NCBI GenBank assembly: GCA_016194455.1
Contig: JACQBN010000010.1
Location: 1 to 57,115, forward strand
Source: Candidatus Kaiserbacteria bacterium
GTDB lineage: Bacteria > Patescibacteriota > Minisyncoccia > Phycocordibacterales > Phycocordibacteraceae
DNA length: 57,115 nt
Direction: 5' to 3'
The position numbers and the translations under genes are program-made. This document shows positions 32,279-57,115 of the stretch, piece after piece. Within the stretch, counting starts at the first letter, position 1. Each line of letters starts with the position of its first letter. Under the pieces are notes generated by a model. That model did not search any database and was not told the DNA's origin. It was given only the letters and a program-made list of their open reading frames with translations.

Positions 32279-34009
32279 ATGAGCAACCAACTCCGCCCCC
32301 TCCTCTGCCAACACTGGGGCGTACTTCTGGTCGCCCTGATTGCAGGATGTCTTACCGCCTTCCCGCAACTCATCAACGAGCACCGGATGAGCGCCGCCTA
32401 CACAGGCGTCCACCCGATCGTGAGTGACGACGAACTCTATTATCTCGCGCGCGCGCACGAAACGCTCGACGGCCACCCGACTCTTGGCAACCCCTATCTC
32501 GCTGAGGACAAGAACCAGCCGGGCGTGCAGTTCTGGATGCCCGACGCCTTCTTCGCGAGCGTGGACCAGGCGCTCTTCGGAAATGTGCGCACGGGAGCGC
32601 TCGTCTGGGATTTCCTCTTGCCCTTCGGAATCGTGCTCGGCGCCTACGCGGTCTTCTATCTGCTCACCGCGGACGTACTGCTCGCGCTCGCAGGAACGAT
32701 ATTTCTCGAGCCCGGACGCTTTTTTCTTGAATATAATCGCACACCGAATCCCCAGCTCTTCTTCGTGCTCCTGCTCTCACTGCTTGCGCTGCTGCTCTAT
32801 TTTCGCACGAAGCGCACGCGCTACGCGCTTTTTGCCGCGCTTGCCGGCGGCTCGCTCTTCTACATCTATCCCTTCTATTGGACCTACTGGGTGGTGCTCG
32901 TGGGACTCGGCATCATGCTCACCTTCCTCTTCCTCCGCGAGAGCGGGGCATGGCAGAAGCTCGGACTCATCTTCCTCGGCGCGTGCGCGATCGGCGTGCC
33001 CTATTTCATCAGCGCGTATCGGGCGGCGCATCTGCCGTACTACCATGAATCGCTGGTGCGCATCGGGGTCATCGAGACGCATTTCCCCTCGGGCATCGCC
33101 GCGGTCTCGGTTGCAGGGGCAACACTGCTTCTCGTCCTCTGGTGCTGGTGGAAACGCTTCGTCCCGCGCACGCCCGAGACCGCGCTTATCGCCGCCGCAA
33201 CTCTTGCGGGAGGCATTGTGATGAATCAGCATCTCATCACCGGCATGAACTTCCAGTTCATCATCCACTACACAATGCCCTCCGTGGTGATGAGTGTCTT
33301 CGCGCTTGCCGCCTGCGCCGCGGGGCTGCTTACGCGCTCAAGAGAGTCCTACCGCGTTCCGCTTCGCGTCCTGGTCCTCTGTATTTTTGTTCTCTATGCC
33401 CTTATCCACACGACTCCGTTTGTGAGAGCGATTGCGACGCCCTCCGCGCGCGATCTCGCTGCCGAGCGCTACGGACCCGTTCTCGCCTGGCTTGATGCGC
33501 ACACCGTGACCGACGCCGTCGTCTACGCCGACGACGCACTCGCTCCCTACATCCCAGCCTACACACGCGACAACGTTTATTTTTCTCCGTGGGCGTATCT
33601 TTCCTATCTGCCGCAGGCGGAGGTTAATACGCGCTTCCTCGGCGCACACTACTTCGAGCGACCATTTACCCGCGAGAGCGTCACTTCCCGCGAGCTCGAC
33701 GTCTTCGGCGCCTACTATGTGGGCCGCTCTCAGCACGCGGCGACCGCGAACAAGGCCCGGCGGCTCCTCGGGCTCCCCGTTATTCTTGAACCGCGGTATC
33801 CGGAGGAGGAGGTGAATGCACTTGTCGCGCGTGAGGCGATGCTCCAGCGGGGGAGCTGGCAGAACGCACTCGCCGGCTATCGGGTTGACTACCTCGCCTG
33901 GGATACCGTCGCCGATCCTGGCTGGAATATCGGAGCCGTACCGGGGCTCACGAAGGTCTATGCCGCAAACGGCATTCTGGTGTATGCTGTGGCCGCTCGA
34001 AAACCATGA
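32279..34009 (+). CDS. multi-TM membrane protein, GT-C-like
   Basis: SDDELYYLAR acidic motif after TM1, many TMs, C-terminal LAWLDAHT...YRVDYL soluble domain. Start placed at ATG 32279. Confidence 0.7.
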   Translation: MSNQLRPLLCQHWGVLLVALIAGCLTAFPQLINEHRMSAAYTGVHPIVSDDELYYLARAHETLDGHPTLGNPYLAEDKNQPGVQFWMPDAFFASVDQALFGNVRTGALVWDFLLPFGIVLGAYAVFYLLTADVLLALAGTIFLEPGRFFLEYNRTPNPQLFFVLLLSLLALLLYFRTKRTRYALFAALAGGSLFYIYPFYWTYWVVLVGLGIMLTFLFLRESGAWQKLGLIFLGACAIGVPYFISAYRAAHLPYYHESLVRIGVIETHFPSGIAAVSVAGATLLLVLWCWWKRFVPRTPETALIAAATLAGGIVMNQHLITGMNFQFIIHYTMPSVVMSVFALAACAAGLLTRSRESYRVPLRVLVLCIFVLYALIHTTPFVRAIATPSARDLAAERYGPVLAWLDAHTVTDAVVYADDALAPYIPAYTRDNVYFSPWAYLSYLPQAEVNTRFLGAHYFERPFTRESVTSRELDVFGAYYVGRSQHAATANKARRLLGLPVILEPRYPEEEVNALVAREAMLQRGSWQNALAGYRVDYLAWDTVADPGWNIGAVPGLTKVYAANGILVYAVAARKP

Positions 34010-47741: not shown

Positions 47742-47755
47742 TTATAGTGCTCGCG

Positions 47756-50278
47756 ATGGCCAGTTTCCTCTCGCGAATGTTTTCGCAGAACCAATCCGCC
47801 GCTTTCCTCAAGGCCGCGGCGCCCGTCGTTGCGGCTGCCAACCATCTTGCATCCGAGTTCGAAGCGCTTAAGGATGCGGAGCTCAAGGGCCGGTTCGCGG
47901 AGGTGCAAAGCCGCGCCCGCCAGGCGGGCGCGGCTCCTGAGGCCGACCTTCCGCTTATCTATGCACTCGTGCGTGAGGCAGCGCGGCGCACACTTATGCA
48001 GCGGCCTTTCGATGTCCAGCTCATCGGCGGCCTTGTGCTTTCCCGCGGCAAGATCGCCGAAATGCGCACCGGCGAGGGTAAGACCCTCGTCGCGACACTG
48101 CCCGCCTCCTCCGCCGCGCTCGCCGGGAAGGGCGTGCACATCGTCACGGTGAACGACTACCTCGCGCGCCGCGACGCCGCGTGGATGGGGCAGATCTACG
48201 ACTACCTCGGGCTCACAGTAGGAGTGGTGACCTCGACCGGTAGCTATCGCTACGATGCGTCGCATGTCGAGCGAAGCGAAGACCCCGAACGAGACAGCGA
48301 AGGCTCGTTCAGAGTTTTCTACGACTACTTGAAACCGGTGACTAAGAAAGAAGCATACGCGGCCGACATCACCTATGCGACCAACAACGAACTCGGTTTC
48401 GATTATCTGCGCGACAACACCGCATACGACGCGTCGCAGATCGTGCAGCGCGGGCATCACTACGCGATCATCGACGAAGTGGATTCCATTTTGATCGACG
48501 AGGCGCGCACGCCGCTCATCATCAGCGGCCCCGCGGGCGACTCGGGGAATCTGTATCAGCAGTTCGCCGGCATCGTCCGCAACTTCAAACGCGGCGAAGA
48601 TTACACCGTGGACGAGAAGCAAAAGGCCGTGCAGATCACCGAAGAGGGGATGCATAAGGCCGAAATCGCGCTGTCGATGGAGAATATCTATACCGAAGGG
48701 GGAATGAAATATGCCCACCATCTTGAAACTGCTGTGCGAGCCCAAGCCCTCTTCAGTAAAGACAAGGAATACGTGGTCAGAAACGGCGAAATCGTGATTG
48801 TGGACGAGTTCACCGGGCGGCTGCAGCCTGGCCGGCGCTGGAGCGAAGGGCTCCACCAAGCAATTGAGGCAAAGGAGGGCGTGGCGATCAACGCCGAGAC
48901 GCGCACCTACGCGACCGTCACCTTCCAGAATCTCTTCCGCATGTACGAGAAGCTCGCGGGCATGACGGGCACCGCGCTCTCGAGCGAGGAAGAGTTCTTC
49001 ACGGTCTACGGGCTTGAGGTCGTCGTGGTGCCAACCCACAAACCGATGGCGCGCAAGGACCACAACGATCTCATCTTCCAGAGCGCGGCAGGGAAGTATC
49101 GCGCGGTCGCTCGCGCGGTCAAGGAGCGGCAGGAGCACGGGCAGCCGGTTTTGGTGGGCACCGTCTCTATTGAGGACAACGAAACAGTGAGCCGCTATCT
49201 CAAGGACGCGGGCGTGGCGCATGAAGTGCTGAACGCGAAGAATCACGAGCGCGAAGGCGAGATCATCGCCGAGGCGGGCGCGCCCGGCAGGGTGACGGTC
49301 GCGACCAACCTCGCAGGCCGCGGCGTCGACATTAAGCTCGGTGGCGCACTCGCCTCTTCGGAGGCGCGGAGCGCGGTGATTGCGCAGGGCGGGCTCGCGG
49401 TCGTCGGCACCGAGCGACACGACGCGCGCCGCATCGACAATCAACTCCGTGGCCGCTCCGGCCGCCAGGGCGATCCGGGCGAGACGCGCTTTTATGTTTC
49501 ACTTGAGGATAAATTGATGCGCGTCTTCGCCGCGGAGACCTTGAAGAAGGTGATGGGCGGCTTCGGCATCCCCGAGGACGAACCGATCGAGAGCGGTATG
49601 ATTACTAAATCCTTAGAGACCGCGCAGGGAAGAATAGAAGGGTTCAACTTCGACTCGCGTAAGCAAGTACTCGCCTACGACGACGTGATGAACACGCAGC
49701 GCCTCGCGATTTATGCTCGTCGCCGTGCCTTATTGGTGGGCACTGACGCCGAGGTCGAGGCGCTCGTGCGCACCCTCATCGCGGCCGACGATGCGGCGAC
49801 CGCCGCATTCGAGGAAAAGAAAAAGCTCTTGGCAGAGGCGTTTACTCCGCTTCTGCGGCATTTGCTCCTGCAGATCATTGATACTTTTTGGTTGGAACAT
49901 TTGGAAACAATGGATTATCTACGGCGCTCGGTATCGCTCCGGGCGTACGGGCAGCGTGATCCACTGATCGAGTACCGCCGCGAGGGGCTCGCGCGCTTCC
50001 GCGCGCTTGAAGCGAGTATTAAGGAGGCAGTGACCCGCACGCTGCCTACCGTCGCGCTCCGGGACGACGCGCGTATTAAGGCCGAAGAAGAAAGGGCGCG
50101 TGCCGCTCTCCTTGCCGCCGCCGAGCGCGAAGGTGGCGCCTCCGGCCAGCCGATCGTCCGCGCCCACACGCCCGGCCGCAACGACCTCGTCACCATCAAG
50201 AAGGGCGAGGAAACCAAAACGCTGAAATTTAAGAAAGCCGCACCGCTTCTCGCCGAGGGGTGGATTCTTGCCTCATGA
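47756..50278 (+). CDS. secA: protein translocase subunit SecA
   Basis: EMRTGEGKT, VTVNDYLA, IDEVDSILIDEARTP, GMTGTA, QLRGRSGRQGDPG, YGQRDPLIEY. Confidence 0.98.
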   Translation: MASFLSRMFSQNQSAAFLKAAAPVVAAANHLASEFEALKDAELKGRFAEVQSRARQAGAAPEADLPLIYALVREAARRTLMQRPFDVQLIGGLVLSRGKIAEMRTGEGKTLVATLPASSAALAGKGVHIVTVNDYLARRDAAWMGQIYDYLGLTVGVVTSTGSYRYDASHVERSEDPERDSEGSFRVFYDYLKPVTKKEAYAADITYATNNELGFDYLRDNTAYDASQIVQRGHHYAIIDEVDSILIDEARTPLIISGPAGDSGNLYQQFAGIVRNFKRGEDYTVDEKQKAVQITEEGMHKAEIALSMENIYTEGGMKYAHHLETAVRAQALFSKDKEYVVRNGEIVIVDEFTGRLQPGRRWSEGLHQAIEAKEGVAINAETRTYATVTFQNLFRMYEKLAGMTGTALSSEEEFFTVYGLEVVVVPTHKPMARKDHNDLIFQSAAGKYRAVARAVKERQEHGQPVLVGTVSIEDNETVSRYLKDAGVAHEVLNAKNHEREGEIIAEAGAPGRVTVATNLAGRGVDIKLGGALASSEARSAVIAQGGLAVVGTERHDARRIDNQLRGRSGRQGDPGETRFYVSLEDKLMRVFAAETLKKVMGGFGIPEDEPIESGMITKSLETAQGRIEGFNFDSRKQVLAYDDVMNTQRLAIYARRRALLVGTDAEVEALVRTLIAADDAATAAFEEKKKLLAEAFTPLLRHLLLQIIDTFWLEHLETMDYLRRSVSLRAYGQRDPLIEYRREGLARFRALEASIKEAVTRTLPTVALRDDARIKAEEERARAALLAAAEREGGASGQPIVRAHTPGRNDLVTIKKGEETKTLKFKKAAPLLAEGWILAS

Positions 50279-50308
50279 CAGACCCTGCCCCCCAATATAT
50301 TTAAAGTA

Positions 50309-50881
50309 ATGGAAGTTTTTGATAAGGAAAAAATCGGAAAGTGCATCGCGTGGGGAGGGGAACACCTAGTGTATGACTACGGCGATACCCAGGTCATAAA
50401 GTTCTCGCTTTTTGATCTGCTGATCGGTCTCCGGCTCGCGCGCATAAAGACTATGCATGATCTCACAATCTGCCGCGAGTTTTTCAGCGACTACATGCTC
50501 TCCACCACGCTCGTCTCGTCGTCAGACGGCAGGCGGCTTGCCAAGCTCCAACCAAAAATAACGGGTCGAGCCATCAAGAAGAGTGATCTGCAGGATAAAA
50601 GGATCGCGCAGCAGTTTAAGGAAATAATTCGGGCGCACCAAGCCCTGGTAGCCCAGGGGTATTACGGCGTAGACCTTATTGGCGGTAGGGGAGTGCTCCT
50701 CGCTCGTCCAACCAACATCTTCCTTACCGTCACCGGCAAGCTCTATCTTATTGACACGCTCTTGCTTTCCGTCCCCGAGCTTCCGTGGCTGCAATGGCTT
50801 TTCAACATTTTTCGCGACGTCGCTATCTGGAATCAGATTCGAATCATAAAAAGTTTCTTATCGGCCTGTGAGGAAAAGTAA
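50309..50881 (+). CDS. hypothetical protein, weak kinase-like fold
   Basis: GGEHLVY, VIK, DL...TNIF, LYLIDT; lower GC than flanks. Confidence 0.6.
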   Translation: MEVFDKEKIGKCIAWGGEHLVYDYGDTQVIKFSLFDLLIGLRLARIKTMHDLTICREFFSDYMLSTTLVSSSDGRRLAKLQPKITGRAIKKSDLQDKRIAQQFKEIIRAHQALVAQGYYGVDLIGGRGVLLARPTNIFLTVTGKLYLIDTLLLSVPELPWLQWLFNIFRDVAIWNQIRIIKSFLSACEEK

Positions 50882-50900
50882 ATCGTGATAGGGTGAGCCA

Positions 50901-51881
50901 ATGGCATTTGTTGATGAAGTGAGGATACGTGCGGCGGCGGGGAAGGGCGGCAACGGCGTCGTTCGCTGGCTGCGTAACAAAGAGACCGCGAAGGGAGGTC
51001 CCTCGGGCGGCGATGGAGGTAGGGGTGGCGACGTTGTTGTGATTGGTGTGCGCGACCTAGCGGTGCTCGCCAACTATCGCTACGAGAAGGACTTTCAAGC
51101 AGAGGACGGCCAAGACGGTGCCGGACAACTGAAGCACGGCAAGAACGGAGAACCAGTCATTTTGAAAGTACCGGTGGGCACGCTCGCGCGCGTTGTAGAA
51201 ACTGGCGAGGAGTTTGATATCCATACCGAGGGAGAGCCGGTGATTATTTTCAAAGGCGGCGGGGGCGGCAAGGGCAACGTTCATTTCAAGGGCTCCACAA
51301 ACCAGAACCCGTTCCAACAAACAGACGGCAAATCGGGAGGGGCTGGGGATATCGAATTCACGCTCAAATTGATCGCCGACGCAGGCCTCATCGGGCTCCC
51401 GAATGCTGGGAAGTCCTCACTCCTCAACGCGCTCACGAAGGCAAAGTCAAAAGTCGGCGCGTATCCCTTTACCACCCTCGAGCCGAACCTTGGCGACTTC
51501 TTCGGCCACATCCTCGCCGACATCCCTGGCCTCATCGAAGGCGCCTCGGCTGGGCGAGGGCTCGGAATAAAATTTTTAAAACACGTAGAACGAACAGGAA
51601 TTTTATTGCATCTCGTCTCGGCAGAGCAAGACGATCCTGTCGCGGCCTATAGGGAAGTGGTGGGGGAGCTCAACGCTTTCGGCCACGGCCTCGGCGATAA
51701 GCGCGAGATCGTTGTCCTCACCAAGACCGATCTCCTCTCGCCCAAGGAGGAGAAAACAAAAGCCGACGTTCTTGCCCGCGAGACCGGGCGAGAGGTACTC
51801 ACGGTTTCCGTGGAAGATCTGCAAAAGTTGAAGAGATTTTCCGACCACCTCGCAACCTTACTTCGCGCCCCCCGGGCTTAG
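50901..51881 (+). CDS. obg: GTPase Obg/CgtA (no C-terminal OCT domain)
   Basis: FVDE, GGDGGRGG, GLPNAGKS, YPFTT, DIPGLIEGA, TKTD. Confidence 0.97.
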   Translation: MAFVDEVRIRAAAGKGGNGVVRWLRNKETAKGGPSGGDGGRGGDVVVIGVRDLAVLANYRYEKDFQAEDGQDGAGQLKHGKNGEPVILKVPVGTLARVVETGEEFDIHTEGEPVIIFKGGGGGKGNVHFKGSTNQNPFQQTDGKSGGAGDIEFTLKLIADAGLIGLPNAGKSSLLNALTKAKSKVGAYPFTTLEPNLGDFFGHILADIPGLIEGASAGRGLGIKFLKHVERTGILLHLVSAEQDDPVAAYREVVGELNAFGHGLGDKREIVVLTKTDLLSPKEEKTKADVLARETGREVLTVSVEDLQKLKRFSDHLATLLRAPRA

Positions 51882-51897
51882 TGCTAGGATGGGCGCG

Positions 51898-53286
51898 ATG
51901 GCACTACTCCCCACCATCGGGCTCGAGATCCACGCAGAGCTCCGGACTTCGACCAAGATGTTCTGCAACTGCAAGAACGATCCGGACGAAGAGCGGCCGA
52001 ACGTCAATATCTGCCCGATCTGCCTCGCGCATCCGGGTACGCTGCCGGTCATTAATCGCGAGGCGGTGCGGCAAGTCTTGCGCGCTGGCGCGGCCCTCGG
52101 CGGCACGCTTGCTCACTTCAGCGAATTTGATCGCAAGAGCTACTTCTATCCGGACATCCCCAAGGGTTATCAGATCAGCCAGTATGAGCACCCGTTGGTC
52201 ACTGGTGGCACGCTCGCCGGTGTCGCGATAACGCGCATACATTTAGAAGAGGATACCGCCCGTTCAACACACGGGGAAAACAAAAGCCTTATCGACTTCA
52301 ATCGCGCGGGCATTCCGCTCATGGAGCTCGTGACCGAGCCGGTCATCCACGACGCGAAGACGGCGGGCGACTTCGCGCGCGAACTGCAACTCCTGCTGCG
52401 CACGCTCGGCGCCTCCGAGGCGAACTTAGAGAAAGGCGAGATGCGCATCGAGGCAAATGTCTCAGTCGCGAGCGGGGAAGAGAGGCTCGGCACCAAGACC
52501 GAGGTCAAAAACCTGAACTCATTCCGCTCCGTCGAGCGCGCTATCGCCTATGAGATCGAGCGACAGACCAAGGCGTTTGAGCGCGGAGAGAAGCTCGCTC
52601 AGGAGACGCGCGGCTGGGACGAGACGAAGCAAGAGACCTTCCATCAGCGATTCAAAGAGGGAAGCGCAGACTATCGCTACTTCCCCGAGCCGGACTTGCC
52701 GAAGCTCGTGCTCGAGGACGTTCCGGAATTTGCGTGCGAAGCGCTTACCGCGTCGCTCCCCGAACTTCCGAGCCAGAAGCGGGAGCGCTATGCAAGGCTC
52801 GGGATAAAGTCCGACGACAGAGCATATCTCGCTGCGGATGTTGCACGCAGCGCTTTCTTCGATGCCGTAACAAAAGAACTCGACGGTCGTCCAAAGTCCA
52901 CCGTGCTTGCTGCTAATTATTTTATATCAGACATGGCCGGCGATCCGTGCGTAGCGTCACCGAGTTCCTTCGCTGCTCTCATACAAATGTTCGCCGCCAA
53001 CGAACTCTCCTCACGCGGGGCGAAGGACGTACTCGCGATTATGATCACGAAGGGTGGGGAACCAGCCGTAATCGCAAAAGAACGCGGACTCGGACAAATC
53101 CAAGACCGCGGAACGCTAGAAGCGGCGGTAGAACGCGTGATGGAGGAGGAGCCCGGAGCAGTCAAGGAGTACCGGGCAGGCAAAAGCGGCACTCTCCAGT
53201 ACCTGCTCGGCAAGGCGATGAAGGTGACAGGCGGGGCAGGAGATCCGGAGCTTCTTAGGGAGATTCTCATAAAAAAGCTCGGTTGA
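51898..53286 (+). CDS. gatB: Asp-tRNA(Asn)/Glu-tRNA(Gln) amidotransferase subunit B
   Basis: IGLEIH, YFYPDIPKGYQISQ, HLEED, DFNRAG, EVKNLNS, DYRYFPEPD. Start 51898 preferred to 51889 from the -10 spacing. Confidence 0.97.
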   Translation: MALLPTIGLEIHAELRTSTKMFCNCKNDPDEERPNVNICPICLAHPGTLPVINREAVRQVLRAGAALGGTLAHFSEFDRKSYFYPDIPKGYQISQYEHPLVTGGTLAGVAITRIHLEEDTARSTHGENKSLIDFNRAGIPLMELVTEPVIHDAKTAGDFARELQLLLRTLGASEANLEKGEMRIEANVSVASGEERLGTKTEVKNLNSFRSVERAIAYEIERQTKAFERGEKLAQETRGWDETKQETFHQRFKEGSADYRYFPEPDLPKLVLEDVPEFACEALTASLPELPSQKRERYARLGIKSDDRAYLAADVARSAFFDAVTKELDGRPKSTVLAANYFISDMAGDPCVASPSSFAALIQMFAANELSSRGAKDVLAIMITKGGEPAVIAKERGLGQIQDRGTLEAAVERVMEEEPGAVKEYRAGKSGTLQYLLGKAMKVTGGAGDPELLREILIKKLG

Positions 53287-53290
53287 TTAT

Positions 53291-53299
53291 TTATACACA
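53291..53299 (+). promoter_or_regulatory. DnaA box (TTATACACA)
   Basis: Matches TTWTNCACA, just upstream of the HTH gene promoter. Confidence 0.4.
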
Positions 53300-53340
53300 A
53301 CCCCCTCCTTCACGAGCCCAGGAAGGCTTATACTAATTGG

Positions 53341-54057
53341 ATGAATGAGATAGTTATCGAAGACAAGAAGTACGTCTCGTCCAAGCGAGCTGCGGAAATC
53401 ACCGGCTACGCCAAGGACTATATCGGTCAACTCTGCCGAGAAGGCAGAGTCCCGGCGCGTCTTATCGGACGCAACTGGTACGTGCTCGAGTCTGCTATAC
53501 AGGACCACCGCTTCGGTGATCCCACACCCACGCCGGGCCCACATGAGGGGGAAGCGTCTGTAAGCCGATTTTCAGCCGACACATGGGAGGTTCCTCGTTA
53601 CGAGGCCCTAGACGCGAAGGAGCTGCCCCCGGTAGACGAGGCCTCAGATTACGGTAATACTCCCCCAGGGGTGGATACGATGCCAGAAGAAGAGCAGAAG
53701 GAACAAGCCCGGGTCACCGATATGCGCGAAGAATGGCAGGCCTGGTTTGATAAGAGCCAGCAGGAAAAGTCCATGAACTCGGTCGCAGAGGAAGTTACGC
53801 GTCATGAAGAGCCAGAAGAGCAGGAAATCCCAGTGTCGATTAAACCAATAGCCCGTCCGCTACAAGAGACCCAGCAAGCCAGGAGCCCAAAGTCGGCAAA
53901 AACTAGAAGAAGCTGGCTTTTACCGCAACTCACAGCGCTTTTCGTAGCACTAATTGCTATCGTCACGCTCGCTCTGAATTCCGGCTACTTTGATACTTTT
54001 ACCGTCTCTTATACCCAAGCCTCAGTTATAACTGGAATAAGGGTCTACAATAAATAG
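53341..54057 (+). CDS. excisionase/MerR-like HTH protein with acidic linker and C-terminal TM
   Basis: YVSSKRAAEITGYAKDYIGQLCREGRVPARLIGRNWYV; Glu-rich linker; LTALFVALIAIVTLAL. Confidence 0.85.
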   Translation: MNEIVIEDKKYVSSKRAAEITGYAKDYIGQLCREGRVPARLIGRNWYVLESAIQDHRFGDPTPTPGPHEGEASVSRFSADTWEVPRYEALDAKELPPVDEASDYGNTPPGVDTMPEEEQKEQARVTDMREEWQAWFDKSQQEKSMNSVAEEVTRHEEPEEQEIPVSIKPIARPLQETQQARSPKSAKTRRSWLLPQLTALFVALIAIVTLALNSGYFDTFTVSYTQASVITGIRVYNK

Positions 54058-54647
54058 CTCAAATAAAGGTTTTATTGTCTCGGCTAGCAGTGTTGCATAA
54101 ATTTATAAAGAAGAATTTAAAGAATCCGTAGACTGCTAAAATAGATCAAAAAATTAAAACCGAGAATCGTAATTTTTGACGACTTCCAGTTTAGAGAAAC
54201 AAGCACTCAAGCTATTCATTTTTTAACATGTGAAAATAGAAAATTCAGGAGGTTTTATTGGATAGATGTCTAGGAAGATTCGTTAATAATTTATAAAATC
54301 TTCGGCATAAATTTGAGATTTATAGACGTTATATCTAATAAAAACAAAGCGAAGTCGGTTAGACGACATTTAGCTCCTGATAATATGGCAGAGCCATGAG
54401 TTTTTACGCTCCCAATAGAAGGATTTTAGGAAATTCTGGTATCTTCGTTGAAAGTATAGGTCTCTCAGGGCTGATTTTAGGATATTTTTTGAAATTCTGC
54501 GAGAAACGCATCTTTAGGAACCAAGATGCAGAGAAGTAGGCTGCTGGAGCGGCTCCTTGATCGTTTTAGCTAGAATCCGCTATCCACAAGCAGGAAACAA
54601 AATGTGCCGGAAAAGCAGATAAACTATAGCTAATTCGGTTATCCGAC
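54058..54647. other. 590 bp AT-rich non-coding region
   Basis: No ORF of 60 aa or more in the track; visibly far lower GC than the rest of the window; A/T tracts and short direct repeats. Confidence 0.8.
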
Positions 54648-57115
54648 ATGGATCCTTCCTTTGAAAATAATTTCATAACGACGAAGCAGGCTCATGCACT
54701 TTCCGGATATTCTCCAGACTATTTGGCGCGTCTTGCGCGTTCGCAAAAGCTTATTGCAAAGCGCGTTGGGAAGTCCTGGGTCATCCGTAAGGATTCGCTA
54801 GCAGAATTCCTGAGAGTTCAAGGAAAACGAAAGGTTGAGTTTGCTCGTGCACTCTCGGAAAGCCGGGAGACTGAATATCGGATCATCCAATCGCCCGTCG
54901 AGCGGGTAAAAAAGGCTTTCACTCCAGCCATTCCGCGCGTTCTCGCGACTGCCGCGCTTGGCAGTTGGCGCGGCGAGCTCGCCGCAGTTGCTATTGCGCT
55001 TGCGGTAGTGGGCACCGGCGTCGCGCTCTCGCGTGCGACGACGGTCGCGCGCCTTGCCACAGCCGGTGAACAATTCTCGAGCGCGGCCTCTTCTGGCTTC
55101 GCAGACATGGCCCTTGGATTCGCACTCGATGTCGATGGGCATATTACTGGCGTTGCGCGCTCAGAGGAGGGCGCGCGGCAAGCTGTAATTAGTCGTCTCG
55201 CGCATATCTCGCCGATCCCCCTGCCGCTCGCCTCTTCTTCGCTTGCAATTTTCTCGCCACTCCCAAATGTAACACCCAGTTTGAATGTACACACACCACT
55301 CGCGCCGAGACCGCGCGTGCGAGTCTCACTCCCGTCGCCCGAAGAATTGCTCGCACTCGTTACGCCACGCGCGTTACTCGGTGACGCAAAAACATTTCTC
55401 GCCGCAAGTGTGAACACGCTCGGCGCGTTCCCAATCGCGCTCGCCCGCAGTGCGATCTCTGCAGATGTTTCTCTTGTGCGGGCGCTTACTGATGCCGGCC
55501 CGAACATCGCGGACGCCGTATTCTCCACCGAGTATCTCGCTATGCAGCCCTTTGTGGAAGGAACGAACCGCGTGCTCGCGGCCTACAGCAACGGTGTGAA
55601 GAGTACCGGCGAGCTCTTCTATGCTGCAGCATCTGGAGCACAGGATCTCAGCTCTGCCGCCCTCGCGCTTACGCACCCGAGTCTTCTCGAGGACACCTGG
55701 CTTGCTCTACTCGGCAGGGGAGAAGCATCGCTCGCTAACCTTGGCGATGCGCTGCGCTCTGGCGGGAGCCAGCTCCTCGCTGCAGTTAATGCTCCGGCGC
55801 TTTCGGGCCCCGAACGCATCGCCTTTTTCGTCTACGAATCCATACACGACATCTTCGCCCAAACGACCTCTGCGCTCGCGGATCTCCTCGTCCCCTCGCC
55901 CACCATTGTGGTGCTACGGAGTTCGATCCCCACTCCCCGCGCGCTTTACGCAAGCAGCACGCCTACGCACGTCGTCTACCCCTCGCCCACCTATGAGCGG
56001 ACGATTATTCAAGGCGGCGTTTCCATGAATTCTTTGAACCAAGCGTTGAGCTCGCTGCGCTCCAGCATCCTCTCCGACGTCCAAGGACTCATCCGCCCGG
56101 TTTCGCAACAGGTGGCGACGAACGCCACCAGCATTCAGCAGGTGAACATCATTCAATCACTCTCAAACTTGAAACTCCACGCGAGCACGATCGACAATAG
56201 CGTCATCACTAGCTCCACGCTTGATCAGCTCGTCGTGACCGGCAACGCAACCTCGACGCTCGCGAACGGCGTCGACATCACGGGCGGTTGCTTCTCGATC
56301 AACGGCACGTGTTTCACCGGCGGGGCGGGCTCACTCGCGACGCTCTCGGATGTCGCACTTACGCCGCTCGCCTACGGCGACGTCCTCTCCTACAACGGAA
56401 CGAAATGGAACAACATCGCCACCTCCACCCTCGGCGTCGCGCTTTCTGATACGACCGGTGTACTCGCGCAGTCGAGAGGCGGCACCGGCACGAGCACCTA
56501 CAACCCTGGCGATATCCTCTACGCGGATGCGTTCGGTACTCTCACGACACTCCCGGTGGGCGGTACCGGCAAAGTGCTCAAGGTCTCGGGCGGGTTGCCC
56601 AGCTGGGGGACCGACCTCTCCGGCAGCGGCGGCGCAAGCGCATGGGCGACCACCAGCGACAACCTTGCTGTTTACACGACCGATCCGACCCAGGTTGTCA
56701 TCATCGGCAACAGCGCGACCTCGACGACAGGGAATATTCTCGAGGTGCACGGCGATGCATATTTTTCGAACAACATCACACTCGCAAATCTGACCGCCAC
56801 CGGCACCCTCTCCGTCGCCGGCCAAACGACGCTCGATACTTCTCTCACCGGCCTCCTCAAGGCCGTCGCGGGTGTCGTTTCGACCGCCACGGCCGGCACC
56901 GACTATGTCGCTCCGGCGACCGCCATCAACACTACGTACCCGCTCCAGGGCGGAGGCGGTCTCTCCACCTCGCGCACCCTCTCCCTCGCCTTCGGCACCA
57001 CCACCTCCAACACCTGGGGCGGCACCCAGACCTTCACCAACAACCCAGTCCTCGGCGCCCTCACCGGTCTCCTCTATGGCAATTCAGGCACCCTCGCCAC
57101 CGCCGCCACCACCAC
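54648..57115 (+). CDS. large HTH-TM-fibre surface protein, partial (over 820 aa, runs off the window)
   Basis: Manually translated open frame: FITTKQAHALSGYSPDYLARLARSQKLIAKRVGKSWVI HTH, TM (AAVAIALAVVGTGVAL), then Gly/Thr/Ser fibre motifs (GGCFSINGTC, LSDV...GDVLSYNGTKWNN, RGGTG, GDILYA, repeated LTGLL). Confidence 0.85.
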   Translation, partial: MDPSFENNFITTKQAHALSGYSPDYLARLARSQKLIAKRVGKSWVIRKDSLAEFLRVQGKRKVEFARALSESRETEYRIIQSPVERVKKAFTPAIPRVLATAALGSWRGELAAVAIALAVVGTGVALSRATTVARLATAGEQFSSAASSGFADMALGFALDVDGHITGVARSEEGARQAVISRLAHISPIPLPLASSSLAIFSPLPNVTPSLNVHTPLAPRPRVRVSLPSPEELLALVTPRALLGDAKTFLAASVNTLGAFPIALARSAISADVSLVRALTDAGPNIADAVFSTEYLAMQPFVEGTNRVLAAYSNGVKSTGELFYAAASGAQDLSSAALALTHPSLLEDTWLALLGRGEASLANLGDALRSGGSQLLAAVNAPALSGPERIAFFVYESIHDIFAQTTSALADLLVPSPTIVVLRSSIPTPRALYASSTPTHVVYPSPTYERTIIQGGVSMNSLNQALSSLRSSILSDVQGLIRPVSQQVATNATSIQQVNIIQSLSNLKLHASTIDNSVITSSTLDQLVVTGNATSTLANGVDITGGCFSINGTCFTGGAGSLATLSDVALTPLAYGDVLSYNGTKWNNIATSTLGVALSDTTGVLAQSRGGTGTSTYNPGDILYADAFGTLTTLPVGGTGKVLKVSGGLPSWGTDLSGSGGASAWATTSDNLAVYTTDPTQVVIIGNSATSTTGNILEVHGDAYFSNNITLANLTATGTLSVAGQTTLDTSLTGLLKAVAGVVSTATAGTDYVAPATAINTTYPLQGGGGLSTSRTLSLAFGTTTSNTWGGTQTFTNNPVLGALTGLLYGNSGTLATAATT

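Follow-up and report, generated by a model that had tools for sequence, protein, structure and literature searches.

The window analysed here is the entire 57,115-nucleotide (nt) contig JACQBN010000010.1 (C7), one of the 31 contigs of the 604-kb, 83% complete genome of a Candidatus Kaiserbacteria bacterium from groundwater, which the database names of its matches assign to the Paceibacteria / Minisyncoccota. At its 3′ end lie two genes on the forward strand: p1 (ORF1, 53341..54057) encodes a protein of 238 amino acids (aa), and p2 (ORF2, 54648..57115) is represented by its N-terminal 822 aa (codons to 57113), its open reading frame (ORF) being open at the contig end; the public gene call for p2 is 823 aa (P0001). 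An earlier note on this DNA had described the two as paralogues in which a helix-turn-helix (HTH) domain is connected through the membrane, in the second protein to a phage-fibre-like ectodomain. It is strongly supported that p1 and p2 form a conserved two-gene cassette of Paceibacteria; that a single helix holds the giant protein p2 in the cytoplasmic membrane, with its first ~100 residues (the HTH and a basic helix) in the cytoplasm and a stalk, a neck and a beta-rich fibre outside; and that p1 is a small paralogue of the same topology whose HTH is nearly invariant.

Each protein begins with an excisionase/MerR-like winged helix of 59 residues (residues 1-59 in both), encoded on the forward strand at 53341..53517 in p1 and at 54648..54824 in p2. 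The p2 domain matches the Pfam family HTH_17 (PF12728) over residues 10-56 with 28.1 bits, above the gathering cut-off of 27 bits, and with 33 bits in a six-frame search. Below the cut-off, the p1 domain scores 23.7 bits over residues 13-55 (25.8 in six frames), and its membership in HTH_17 follows from its profile homology to p2 (hhalign probability 97%, E-value 9.8e-11 over 46 columns from Met1) together with its fold. The earlier note had seen the same HTH in both ORFs, and the two are indeed homologous from the first methionine, but with an identity of only 26%; within the genome, tblastn aligns them over 41-48 aa at 23-27% identity with E-values of 6e-5 to 6e-4. A GY-x-x-DY turn and a G-[RK]-x-W wing are common to both. 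The NCBIfam excisionase model TIGR01764 gives p2 16 bits against a cut-off of 28.8 and has no match in p1, and a comparison with the sequences of solved structures returned no match for p2 and only two chance-level rows for p1.

In AlphaFold2 models computed from family alignments, the two N-terminal domains reach a predicted local distance difference test (pLDDT) score above 90 (91-93 for p1, ~95 for p2), and in both the elements follow in the order strand(s), helix, helix, hairpin, helix. In the models the HTH is followed by a beta-hairpin wing and can be superposed on solved members of the winged-HTH fold. A structural search of the p1 model against all representatives, where Z-scores below 8 are rated middling, ranks BldC (Z 6.5), Pukovnik Xis (Z 6.4) and MerR-type regulators (Z 5.1-5.8); further matches are Tn916 Xis, GlnR/TnrA, a plasmid centromere binder, RacA (Z 4.7) and TraN (Z 4.5), as well as CbpM, a protein binder of the same fold, at Z 5.5. 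Foldseek retrieves the same set of proteins for the p1 and p2 models, with weak E-values because the domain is short, and lists Xis and BldC in the top rows for p2. BldC and the Xis proteins of phages and transposons are the top structural matches for both HTHs (Z 6.4-6.5, root-mean-square deviation 2.3-2.7 over 51-53 residues; Foldseek template-modelling score by target ~0.7), but they are small soluble proteins without a membrane helix or exported domain. HTH_17 is matched three times in the genome, two of the matches being the neighbours p1 and p2. The third, on contig C31 (~59490-59690) near the contig end, is a stand-alone excisionase-like protein of ~60-65 aa (67-aa open frame) with no membrane helix. 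Tandem double HTHs in one protein occur in the small gene of L090, L092, L093 and L099 and in the large gene of L021 and P0003; TraN shares this doubled arrangement.

Hydropathy and the models agree on one membrane helix per protein, as had been proposed. The p1 helix covers residues 193-211 by hydropathy (53917..53973, forward strand; model helix 190-213) at a mean Kyte-Doolittle value of 2.3, with five lysines or arginines (K+R) before it and none after. The p2 helix covers residues 109-127 (54972..55028, forward strand; model helix 107-128) and is preceded by a basic helix (residues 48-91). Within the p1 family, K+R per 15 residues amount to 4.55 before the helix versus 0.87 after it, with more before in 30 of 31 rows; the corresponding values for the p2 family are 1.62 versus 0.79, with more before in 28 of 48 rows and 14 ties. 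Taken with hydropathy and the models, these positive-inside counts predict that both HTHs are cytoplasmic and the remainder of each protein outside, which would make p1 a bitopic membrane protein with its N-terminus inside. Loss of the HTH as part of a signal peptide, which the earlier note had named as a possible refutation, does not fit: the N-terminus of p2 is not a classical signal peptide, since its helix starts only at residue ~107, and the HTH is not a disposable leader, since it is the best-conserved part of both proteins.

Behind the winged HTH, p1 continues with a linker, acidic and for the most part disordered, in which short conserved motifs and one confidently modelled helix (residues 116-148) occur; then come a basic juxtamembrane stretch, the membrane helix and an outer tail that is indeed short (~25 aa) and is conserved down to its last three residues. 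Its family comprises 1472 proteins at E<=1e-3 among 1861 candidates, and the best 120 relatives align over their full length at 35-45% identity; the ESM Atlas entries for the family are hypothetical proteins only. Selection is focused on the HTH. Mean pairwise identity there is 0.91 in p1 (residues 1-59, 31 relatives; minimum 0.80) and 0.62 in p2, against 0.27-0.43 elsewhere (p1 linker 0.32, p1 membrane helix and tail 0.43, p2 stalk 0.27-0.41), the p2 neck having 0.53.

Beyond its membrane helix p2 follows the outline given in the earlier note, with long helices to residue ~501 and a Gly/Thr-rich part thereafter. Model helices and the identity profile define a helical stalk (residues ~130-501) with a conserved neck (residues 441-520), encoded together at 55035..56207 on the forward strand; the helices span residues 130-187, 240-338, 344-414 and 460-501 at pLDDT 50-84, and nothing past residue 560 is modelled reliably. 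Residues ~560-822 (56325..57113, forward strand) are identified by their composition (G 0.15, T 0.19) as fibre repeats, with repeat motifs common to the relatives; the model has low confidence in this part. No Pfam or PHROG family matches this part, and for the stalk the ESM Atlas holds no usable look-alike and Foldseek finds nothing except the HTH.

The relatives of p2 provide a view of the part that the contig end cuts off. An initial search yielded 38 relatives, mostly labelled partial, four of them with Peptidase_S74; complete relatives measure 2103, 2176 and 2556 aa, the last from a genome of the same genus. A base profile of 644 positions, made from the first ~600 residues of a 48-row alignment with the window's p2 as its first row, matches 284 cluster representatives at E<=1e-30, 1748 at E<=1e-10 and 6265 at E<=1e-3, in proteins of up to 7214 aa; among the matches listed, those that cover the full profile begin at residue 1. 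The window's p2 belongs to this base family, having HTH, membrane helix, stalk and neck and aligning full-length from residue 1. The same-genus orthologue of 2556 aa, which shares only 31% identity with it over 590 aa, carries HTH_17 at 10-58, S74 at 2119-2172 and an Ig-like domain at 2466-2535, and among the PHROGs matches a virion structural protein (7.9e-27) and a tail spike (4.9e-15). The tips of 20 long relatives are diverse, with S74 in two and LVIVD/beta-propeller repeats, an Ig-like domain, an intein with NYN, or no match in the rest. In the p2 relative L048:9428-16759, LVIVD repeats and a beta-propeller (residues ~1420-2180) replace the fibre repeats, which shows that tip modules are swapped on a conserved base. 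Another relative, L063:9521-15394, has in its exported part (residues ~1252-1601) a nuclease-like NYN domain that is inserted into an intein splicing domain. The picture suggested by these comparisons is that of a conserved base with interchangeable, fast-evolving tips.

The term phage-fibre-like is borne out by the relatives, which match S74 and tail spikes, but for the window's own 822 aa it describes composition and likeness to those relatives only. S74 phage tail fibres and endosialidases resemble p2 in the Peptidase_S74 domains of its relatives, the tail-spike and virion PHROGs and the Gly/Thr-rich repeats. They differ in that p2 is a chromosomal gene beside secA-obg-gatB, with an N-terminal membrane anchor and a cytoplasmic HTH (as predicted), and in that the S74 domain, located at 2119-2172 of 2556 aa in the same-genus orthologue, does not form the end of that protein and is missing from 18 of the 20 relatives scanned. 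The full ORF in which the earlier note had proposed to look for a C-terminal S74 chaperone cannot be completed from this assembly, but the domain does occur in the same-genus orthologue. S74 (PF13884) is absent from the window's 822 aa of p2 and from every contig of the 83%-complete genome, in which p2 is cut and its middle unassembled. The C-terminus probably lies on contig C2 (L083), where a 5′-open frame of 699 aa (2-2101) ends in the same Ig-like domain as the orthologue and aligns with the C-terminal regions of two orthologues, at 36% identity over 327 aa in one and 43% over 112 aa in the other. C2 also carries the gene located after p2 in the same-genus genome (5453-6055; 70% over 175 aa), 3.3 kb beyond the 699-aa frame and separated from it by extra ORFs of 677 aa and 193 aa. 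Assemblies often break at this spot because of the giant fibre gene, which is a systematic breakpoint of short-read assembly in this clade: 52 of 63 incomplete copies (L002-L081) stop at a contig end, as in the window.

The pairing of p1 with p2, the conservation of which the earlier note had made a test of its proposal, is retained well beyond this genome. Close relatives were taken as the best 80 of 211 loci found with the p1 alignment; 74 have at least 1000 nt after p1, and six have too little downstream DNA to judge. A p2-type gene lies downstream of p1 on the same strand in 72 of the 74 (the exceptions being L024 and L081), at a distance of 101-760 nt (median 610 nt); a few loci have only a short gene (238-503 aa) in this position. 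A survey across the order, as had been suggested for HTH-membrane-fibre architectures, finds the p1 profile in 92 and the p2 profile in 100 of 201 sampled genomes, and the p1 profile in 12 of 401 sampled genomes of the phylum. Within the order the matches are usually to the HTH alone, in frames of <100 to 6630 aa. Two separate HTH genes lie within 3.5 kb of each other in 17 further genomes of the order (a hand tally from the p1 and p2 profile tables), and in 13 of 14 distant regions from other genera and families (11 of the 14 picked for having two matches) a small HTH gene is followed by a larger gene, the small gene having two HTHs in four. Large exported proteins with an HTH-plus-helix head are widespread in the order, and at the thresholds used the small partner is frequent, not universal.

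Upstream of p1 lie secA (47747-50278), a 190-aa ORF, obg and gatB, and all genes flanking the cassette are co-oriented with it. This block (47747-53286) is kept in 69-80 of the 80 loci (gatB 80/80, obg 75/80, secA 69/80); as a yardstick of conservation, SecA, Obg and GatB of the related loci are ~58-80% identical to those of the window. On other contigs, two more 5′-open frames that reach contig ends, on C21 (1-2034) and over the whole of C28, resemble further large surface proteins; one of the two frames is Gly-rich with Laminin_G_3 and the other is a fibronectin type III repeat array.

The two genes are strongly predicted to have separate conserved promoters, that of p2 with a gene-specific leader. 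In the p1 promoter region (53291..53340, forward strand) a box TTATACACA at 53291-53299 is followed after 29 nt by the -10-like hexamer TATACT at 53329-53334, which leaves 6 nt to the ATG. A hexamer of this type (TAYAMT) is found at -12/-13 of the p1 ATG, with a gap of 5-7 nt, in 78 of 80 loci, and the relatives keep the order of a box related to that of p2, a conserved block and the hexamer. The hexamer lies so close to the ATG that the p1 mRNA, going by its presumed start, may be leaderless or near-leaderless. Directly upstream of the p1 hexamer most relatives carry a block with the consensus AGCCGAGATA-n-GGC, from which the window's copy differs. Right after the p1 stop (54058-54100 in the window) a short conserved stretch, TTTTCTCGTCTCGG..., with hairpin potential is present in many loci and may be the p1 terminator.

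Between the genes lies a spacer of 590 nt (54058-54647) with a GC content of 0.354 versus 0.593 for the whole window, and the spacer is AT-rich in 72 of 72 related loci (mean GC difference -0.165). The earlier note had taken the AT-rich spacer as a candidate binding site; a conserved element is indeed present just before p2, but it is limited to the last ~70 nt. In blastn comparisons with 72 other spacers the match is confined to spacer positions 523-590, and the remaining AT-rich part (54058..54579) contains nothing conserved in the window's lineage, its 47-aa ORF (54396-54539) figuring only in the mechanical ORF list. Rfam (E<=1) and a tRNA search gave no match in the spacer, and it contains no conserved ORF. 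The sole conserved part, the predicted p2 promoter and leader (54580..54647, forward strand), was delineated from the sequence and an upstream alignment and consists of a box CTATCCACA (54580-54588), a block GCCGGAAAA (54606-54614), a -10-like TAAACT (54620-54625) and a leader ATAGCTAATTCGGTTATCCGAC (54626-54647), which abuts the ATG and contains no Shine-Dalgarno-like run. The 64 aligned p2 upstream regions share this order, with a box of the TTATCCACA type, whose spacing falls into two classes that differ by about ten nucleotides, then a GCCGAAAT block, the hexamer and AATTCGG-n-TATCCGAC up to the ATG. No variation is seen at the T, the A and the final T of the hexamer, and AATTCG and TATCCGAC reach at least 90% conservation. 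Conservation of the ~45 nt ahead of the p2 ATG far exceeds that of the proteins, and other families retain the general layout (box, ~30 nt, -10-like hexamer, TAATTCG) upstream of their large gene. Nowhere else in the genome does the 12-nt leader motif stand in front of a gene, its one other match being a palindrome on C11. The usual promoter words of the genome are CTTGACA and TATACT; the p2 promoter has no CTTGACA -35, in which it resembles activator-dependent promoters.

An inverted repeat, GCCGAA ... TTCGGC, flanks the p2 hexamer. The covariation of two candidate leader hairpins does not clearly exceed that of shuffles (36/500 and 56/500 reach the observed score), and the hairpins pair well only because the sequence is conserved; without convincing covariation at GCCGAA ... 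TTCGGC an RNA hairpin is unsupported, and a DNA palindrome is possible. The 9-mer TTATCCACA occurs ten times in the 604-kb genome versus ~2.3 expected (an estimate from base composition), at 33402, 47503, 53291 and 54580 of the window and on contigs C8, C9, C17, C23, C25 and C31. Allowing one mismatch, it has 13 sense-orientation sites in 302 upstream regions versus 3.0 +/- 2.0 for shuffled motifs, the maximum of 200 shuffles also being 13. The sites include those of dnaA, p1 and p2, and several lie ~28-31 nt ahead of TATACT. The box corresponds to the DnaA-box consensus, and its distribution hints at a DnaA-linked or other regulon. The box was rejected as a general promoter element of the genome, the enriched words being CTTGACA and TATACT. 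Three further ideas about this region were also discarded: a replication origin in the AT-rich spacer, for which the fit of the box to the DnaA-box consensus would speak, given that dnaA is on another contig, C17, and ~195 kb and ~536 kb away in two long assemblies (record coordinates), with all flanking genes co-oriented; an invertible promoter, as only short AT-rich inverted repeats are present; and a second operator copy as a general feature of the spacer, as only 8 of 73 spacers have one.

What might such a cassette do? Tentatively, and with somewhat less than an even chance of being right, we favour a membrane-bound, ToxR/TcpP-like circuit for the surface fibre, in which the HTHs bind DNA at the cassette's own control region. 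Both HTHs would bind DNA, the target being the cassette's own promoter and leader before p2 and a related form before p1. The pair would thus constitute a self-contained, membrane-tethered regulatory circuit in the style of ToxR/TcpP or CadC that tunes fibre production to the state of the fibre or envelope, with p1 as a conserved regulatory partner, and the fibre would most likely serve attachment to a host cell or surface. We infer DNA binding from the fold, from the variants with tandem HTHs and from the retention of the HTH_17 pattern. As a target, the cassette's own control region is the most plausible: no other non-coding DNA in the vicinity is conserved, it occurs once in the genome, and it parallels the p1 HTH in its conservation.

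ToxR and TcpP work with small bitopic partners and pass a surface signal without a kinase. Like them and CadC, p1 and p2 are predicted to combine an N-terminal cytoplasmic domain of DNA-binding type with one membrane helix and a remainder outside. However, the known proteins use an OmpR/PhoB winged helix, where the domain here is MerR/excisionase-like, and a Pfam search of p1 and p2 at E<=1 gave no match to an OmpR/PhoB-type domain. They also have a small outer sensor, where p2 has a fibre of at least 2,000 aa and p1 a 25-aa tail. The ToxR/CadC comparison made in the earlier note thus stands for the bitopic layout, the predicted inside position of the HTH and the conserved pair, but as one of mechanism, not of family, because the HTH is not of OmpR type. 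CadC itself is described as a membrane-bound transcription activator of ToxR type (PMC5430869). A small DNA-binding HTH protein has been proposed to govern the very large adhesin gene badA of Bartonella (PMC5387305); the badA regulators differ from p1 in being soluble and unrelated in sequence, and BadA is an outer-membrane trimeric autotransporter.

Several observations weigh against such a circuit. The p1 HTH carries nearly no net charge (10 K/R versus 9 D/E), CbpM shows that the fold also serves protein binding, and p1 exposes just ~25 residues outside, which is little for sensing. The count of 72 in 74 loci overstates independent support, because the secA-obg-gatB block is also kept in this one clade by common descent. 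At least 23 genomes have the HTH at the start of a frame of at least 1000 aa, in many cases without a detected small partner, and the use of an HTH-plus-helix module on many large proteins suits a generic role more than that of a gene-specific regulator. No RNA run was found to contain the locus, and the promoters and transcription start sites of the cassette are guesses; another protein may bind the box, which fits the DnaA consensus and is enriched before other genes including dnaA.

Two other accounts, each rather improbable in our estimate, take up parts of this evidence. One, foreshadowed in the earlier note, is that the HTHs act as a DNA tether, holding the chromosome or their own locus at the membrane under the fibre without controlling transcription, for chromosome positioning or to couple transcription, translation and insertion of a 2,000-7,000-aa protein. 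RacA fastens DNA to the cell envelope in this manner. The RacA of Bacillus subtilis (PDB 5i44/5i41) has a MerR-like winged HTH, with a Foldseek probability of 0.96-0.97 and Z 4.7 here, and the resemblance of the fold to RacA-DNA and the pSK1 Par centromere binder is in line with tethering, as are the permanent membrane attachment predicted for both p1 and p2, the presence of the module at the head of many giant proteins and the position of the leader at the very start of the giant gene. RacA, however, is soluble, reaches the membrane via DivIVA and has many chromosomal sites, where the conserved leader motif here is single in the genome and seldom repeated within the spacer; nor is there any indication of a polar location, and the locus lies far from dnaA.

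The other would make the HTH fold a protein adaptor, re-used to bind a conserved cytoplasmic protein, by which p1 and the fibre would be anchored or positioned on a machine of the cytoskeleton, of division or of export; this too we consider unlikely. RodZ and CbpM are precedents, in that the RodZ HTH binds a protein, MreB, and not DNA, and CbpM binds CbpA. With RodZ the cassette's proteins share a bitopic layout with cytoplasmic N-terminal HTH, linker and one membrane helix. An adaptor would explain why the entire p1 domain, not one helix alone, is near-invariant (0.91), and it agrees with the little net charge of the p1 HTH, with CbpM among its structural matches, with several short conserved linker motifs typical of docking sites and with the generic use of the module across many large proteins. 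Against it, no partner has been identified and the canonical HTH_17 pattern, including the basic wing, is retained in the domain. The HTH of RodZ, moreover, is Xre-type and its outer part is RodZ_C, which the cassette's proteins do not have, and identity with RodZ was rejected: RodZ_C scores 19.3 bits against a cut-off of 23.9, elsewhere in the genome, and the sole MreB_Mbl match in this 83%-complete genome is weak and partial (52.4 bits, profile 92-317, in a 508-aa frame).

Quite unlikely, in our view, is an ordinary anchor, in which the HTH is mainly a fast-folding basic plug that fixes the N-in orientation and retains large exported proteins in the membrane, p1 is a decoy or a truncated paralogue, and the two genes are neighbours through tandem duplication and common ancestry, not because they act together. 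Homology of the N-termini from Met1 does point to duplication, synteny of the secA-obg-gatB-p1-p2 block inflates the pairing count, and many large proteins have the module with no partner detected. A plug, however, would not require 91% identity where the p1 linker has 32%; p1 is kept full-length (in the best 120 of 1472 proteins) with conserved tail and linker motifs, and each gene has its own conserved promoter, as far as can be predicted. Finally, there is at best a slim chance that the fibre is a latent transcription factor, a Notch-like contact sensor made from an adhesin, in which host contact, a pull on the fibre or its loss would lead to cleavage in or near the membrane helix and free the HTH for action on DNA, with p1 as conserved gatekeeper; the genome does encode a site-2-type M50 protease.

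A membrane-bound circuit acting on its own control region therefore remains the reading we prefer, at the tentative strength given above. A full-text search of the literature outside subscription journals found no account of an HTH-membrane-fibre architecture or of this family. Membrane-bound HTH proteins and giant adhesins are both known kinds; their combination appears to be new, not yet a category of its own, and its activity is one that we infer.

Paceibacteria and their kin are tiny, mostly uncultured and thought to live attached to other cells, and how they attach and how they sense attachment are little understood. The cassette described here sits in a housekeeping neighbourhood, has matches in about half of the 201 sampled genomes of the order, and couples a surface fibre, the kind of protein that evolves fastest, to a domain that is among the slowest to change in these genomes. 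Whether the HTHs bind DNA or protein, the cassette offers small expressible domains and a 70-nt DNA target for tests. If they bind protein, they would point to an unknown cytoplasmic scaffold; if they bind DNA, a single protein would connect the cell surface with the chromosome in organisms that possess few regulators.

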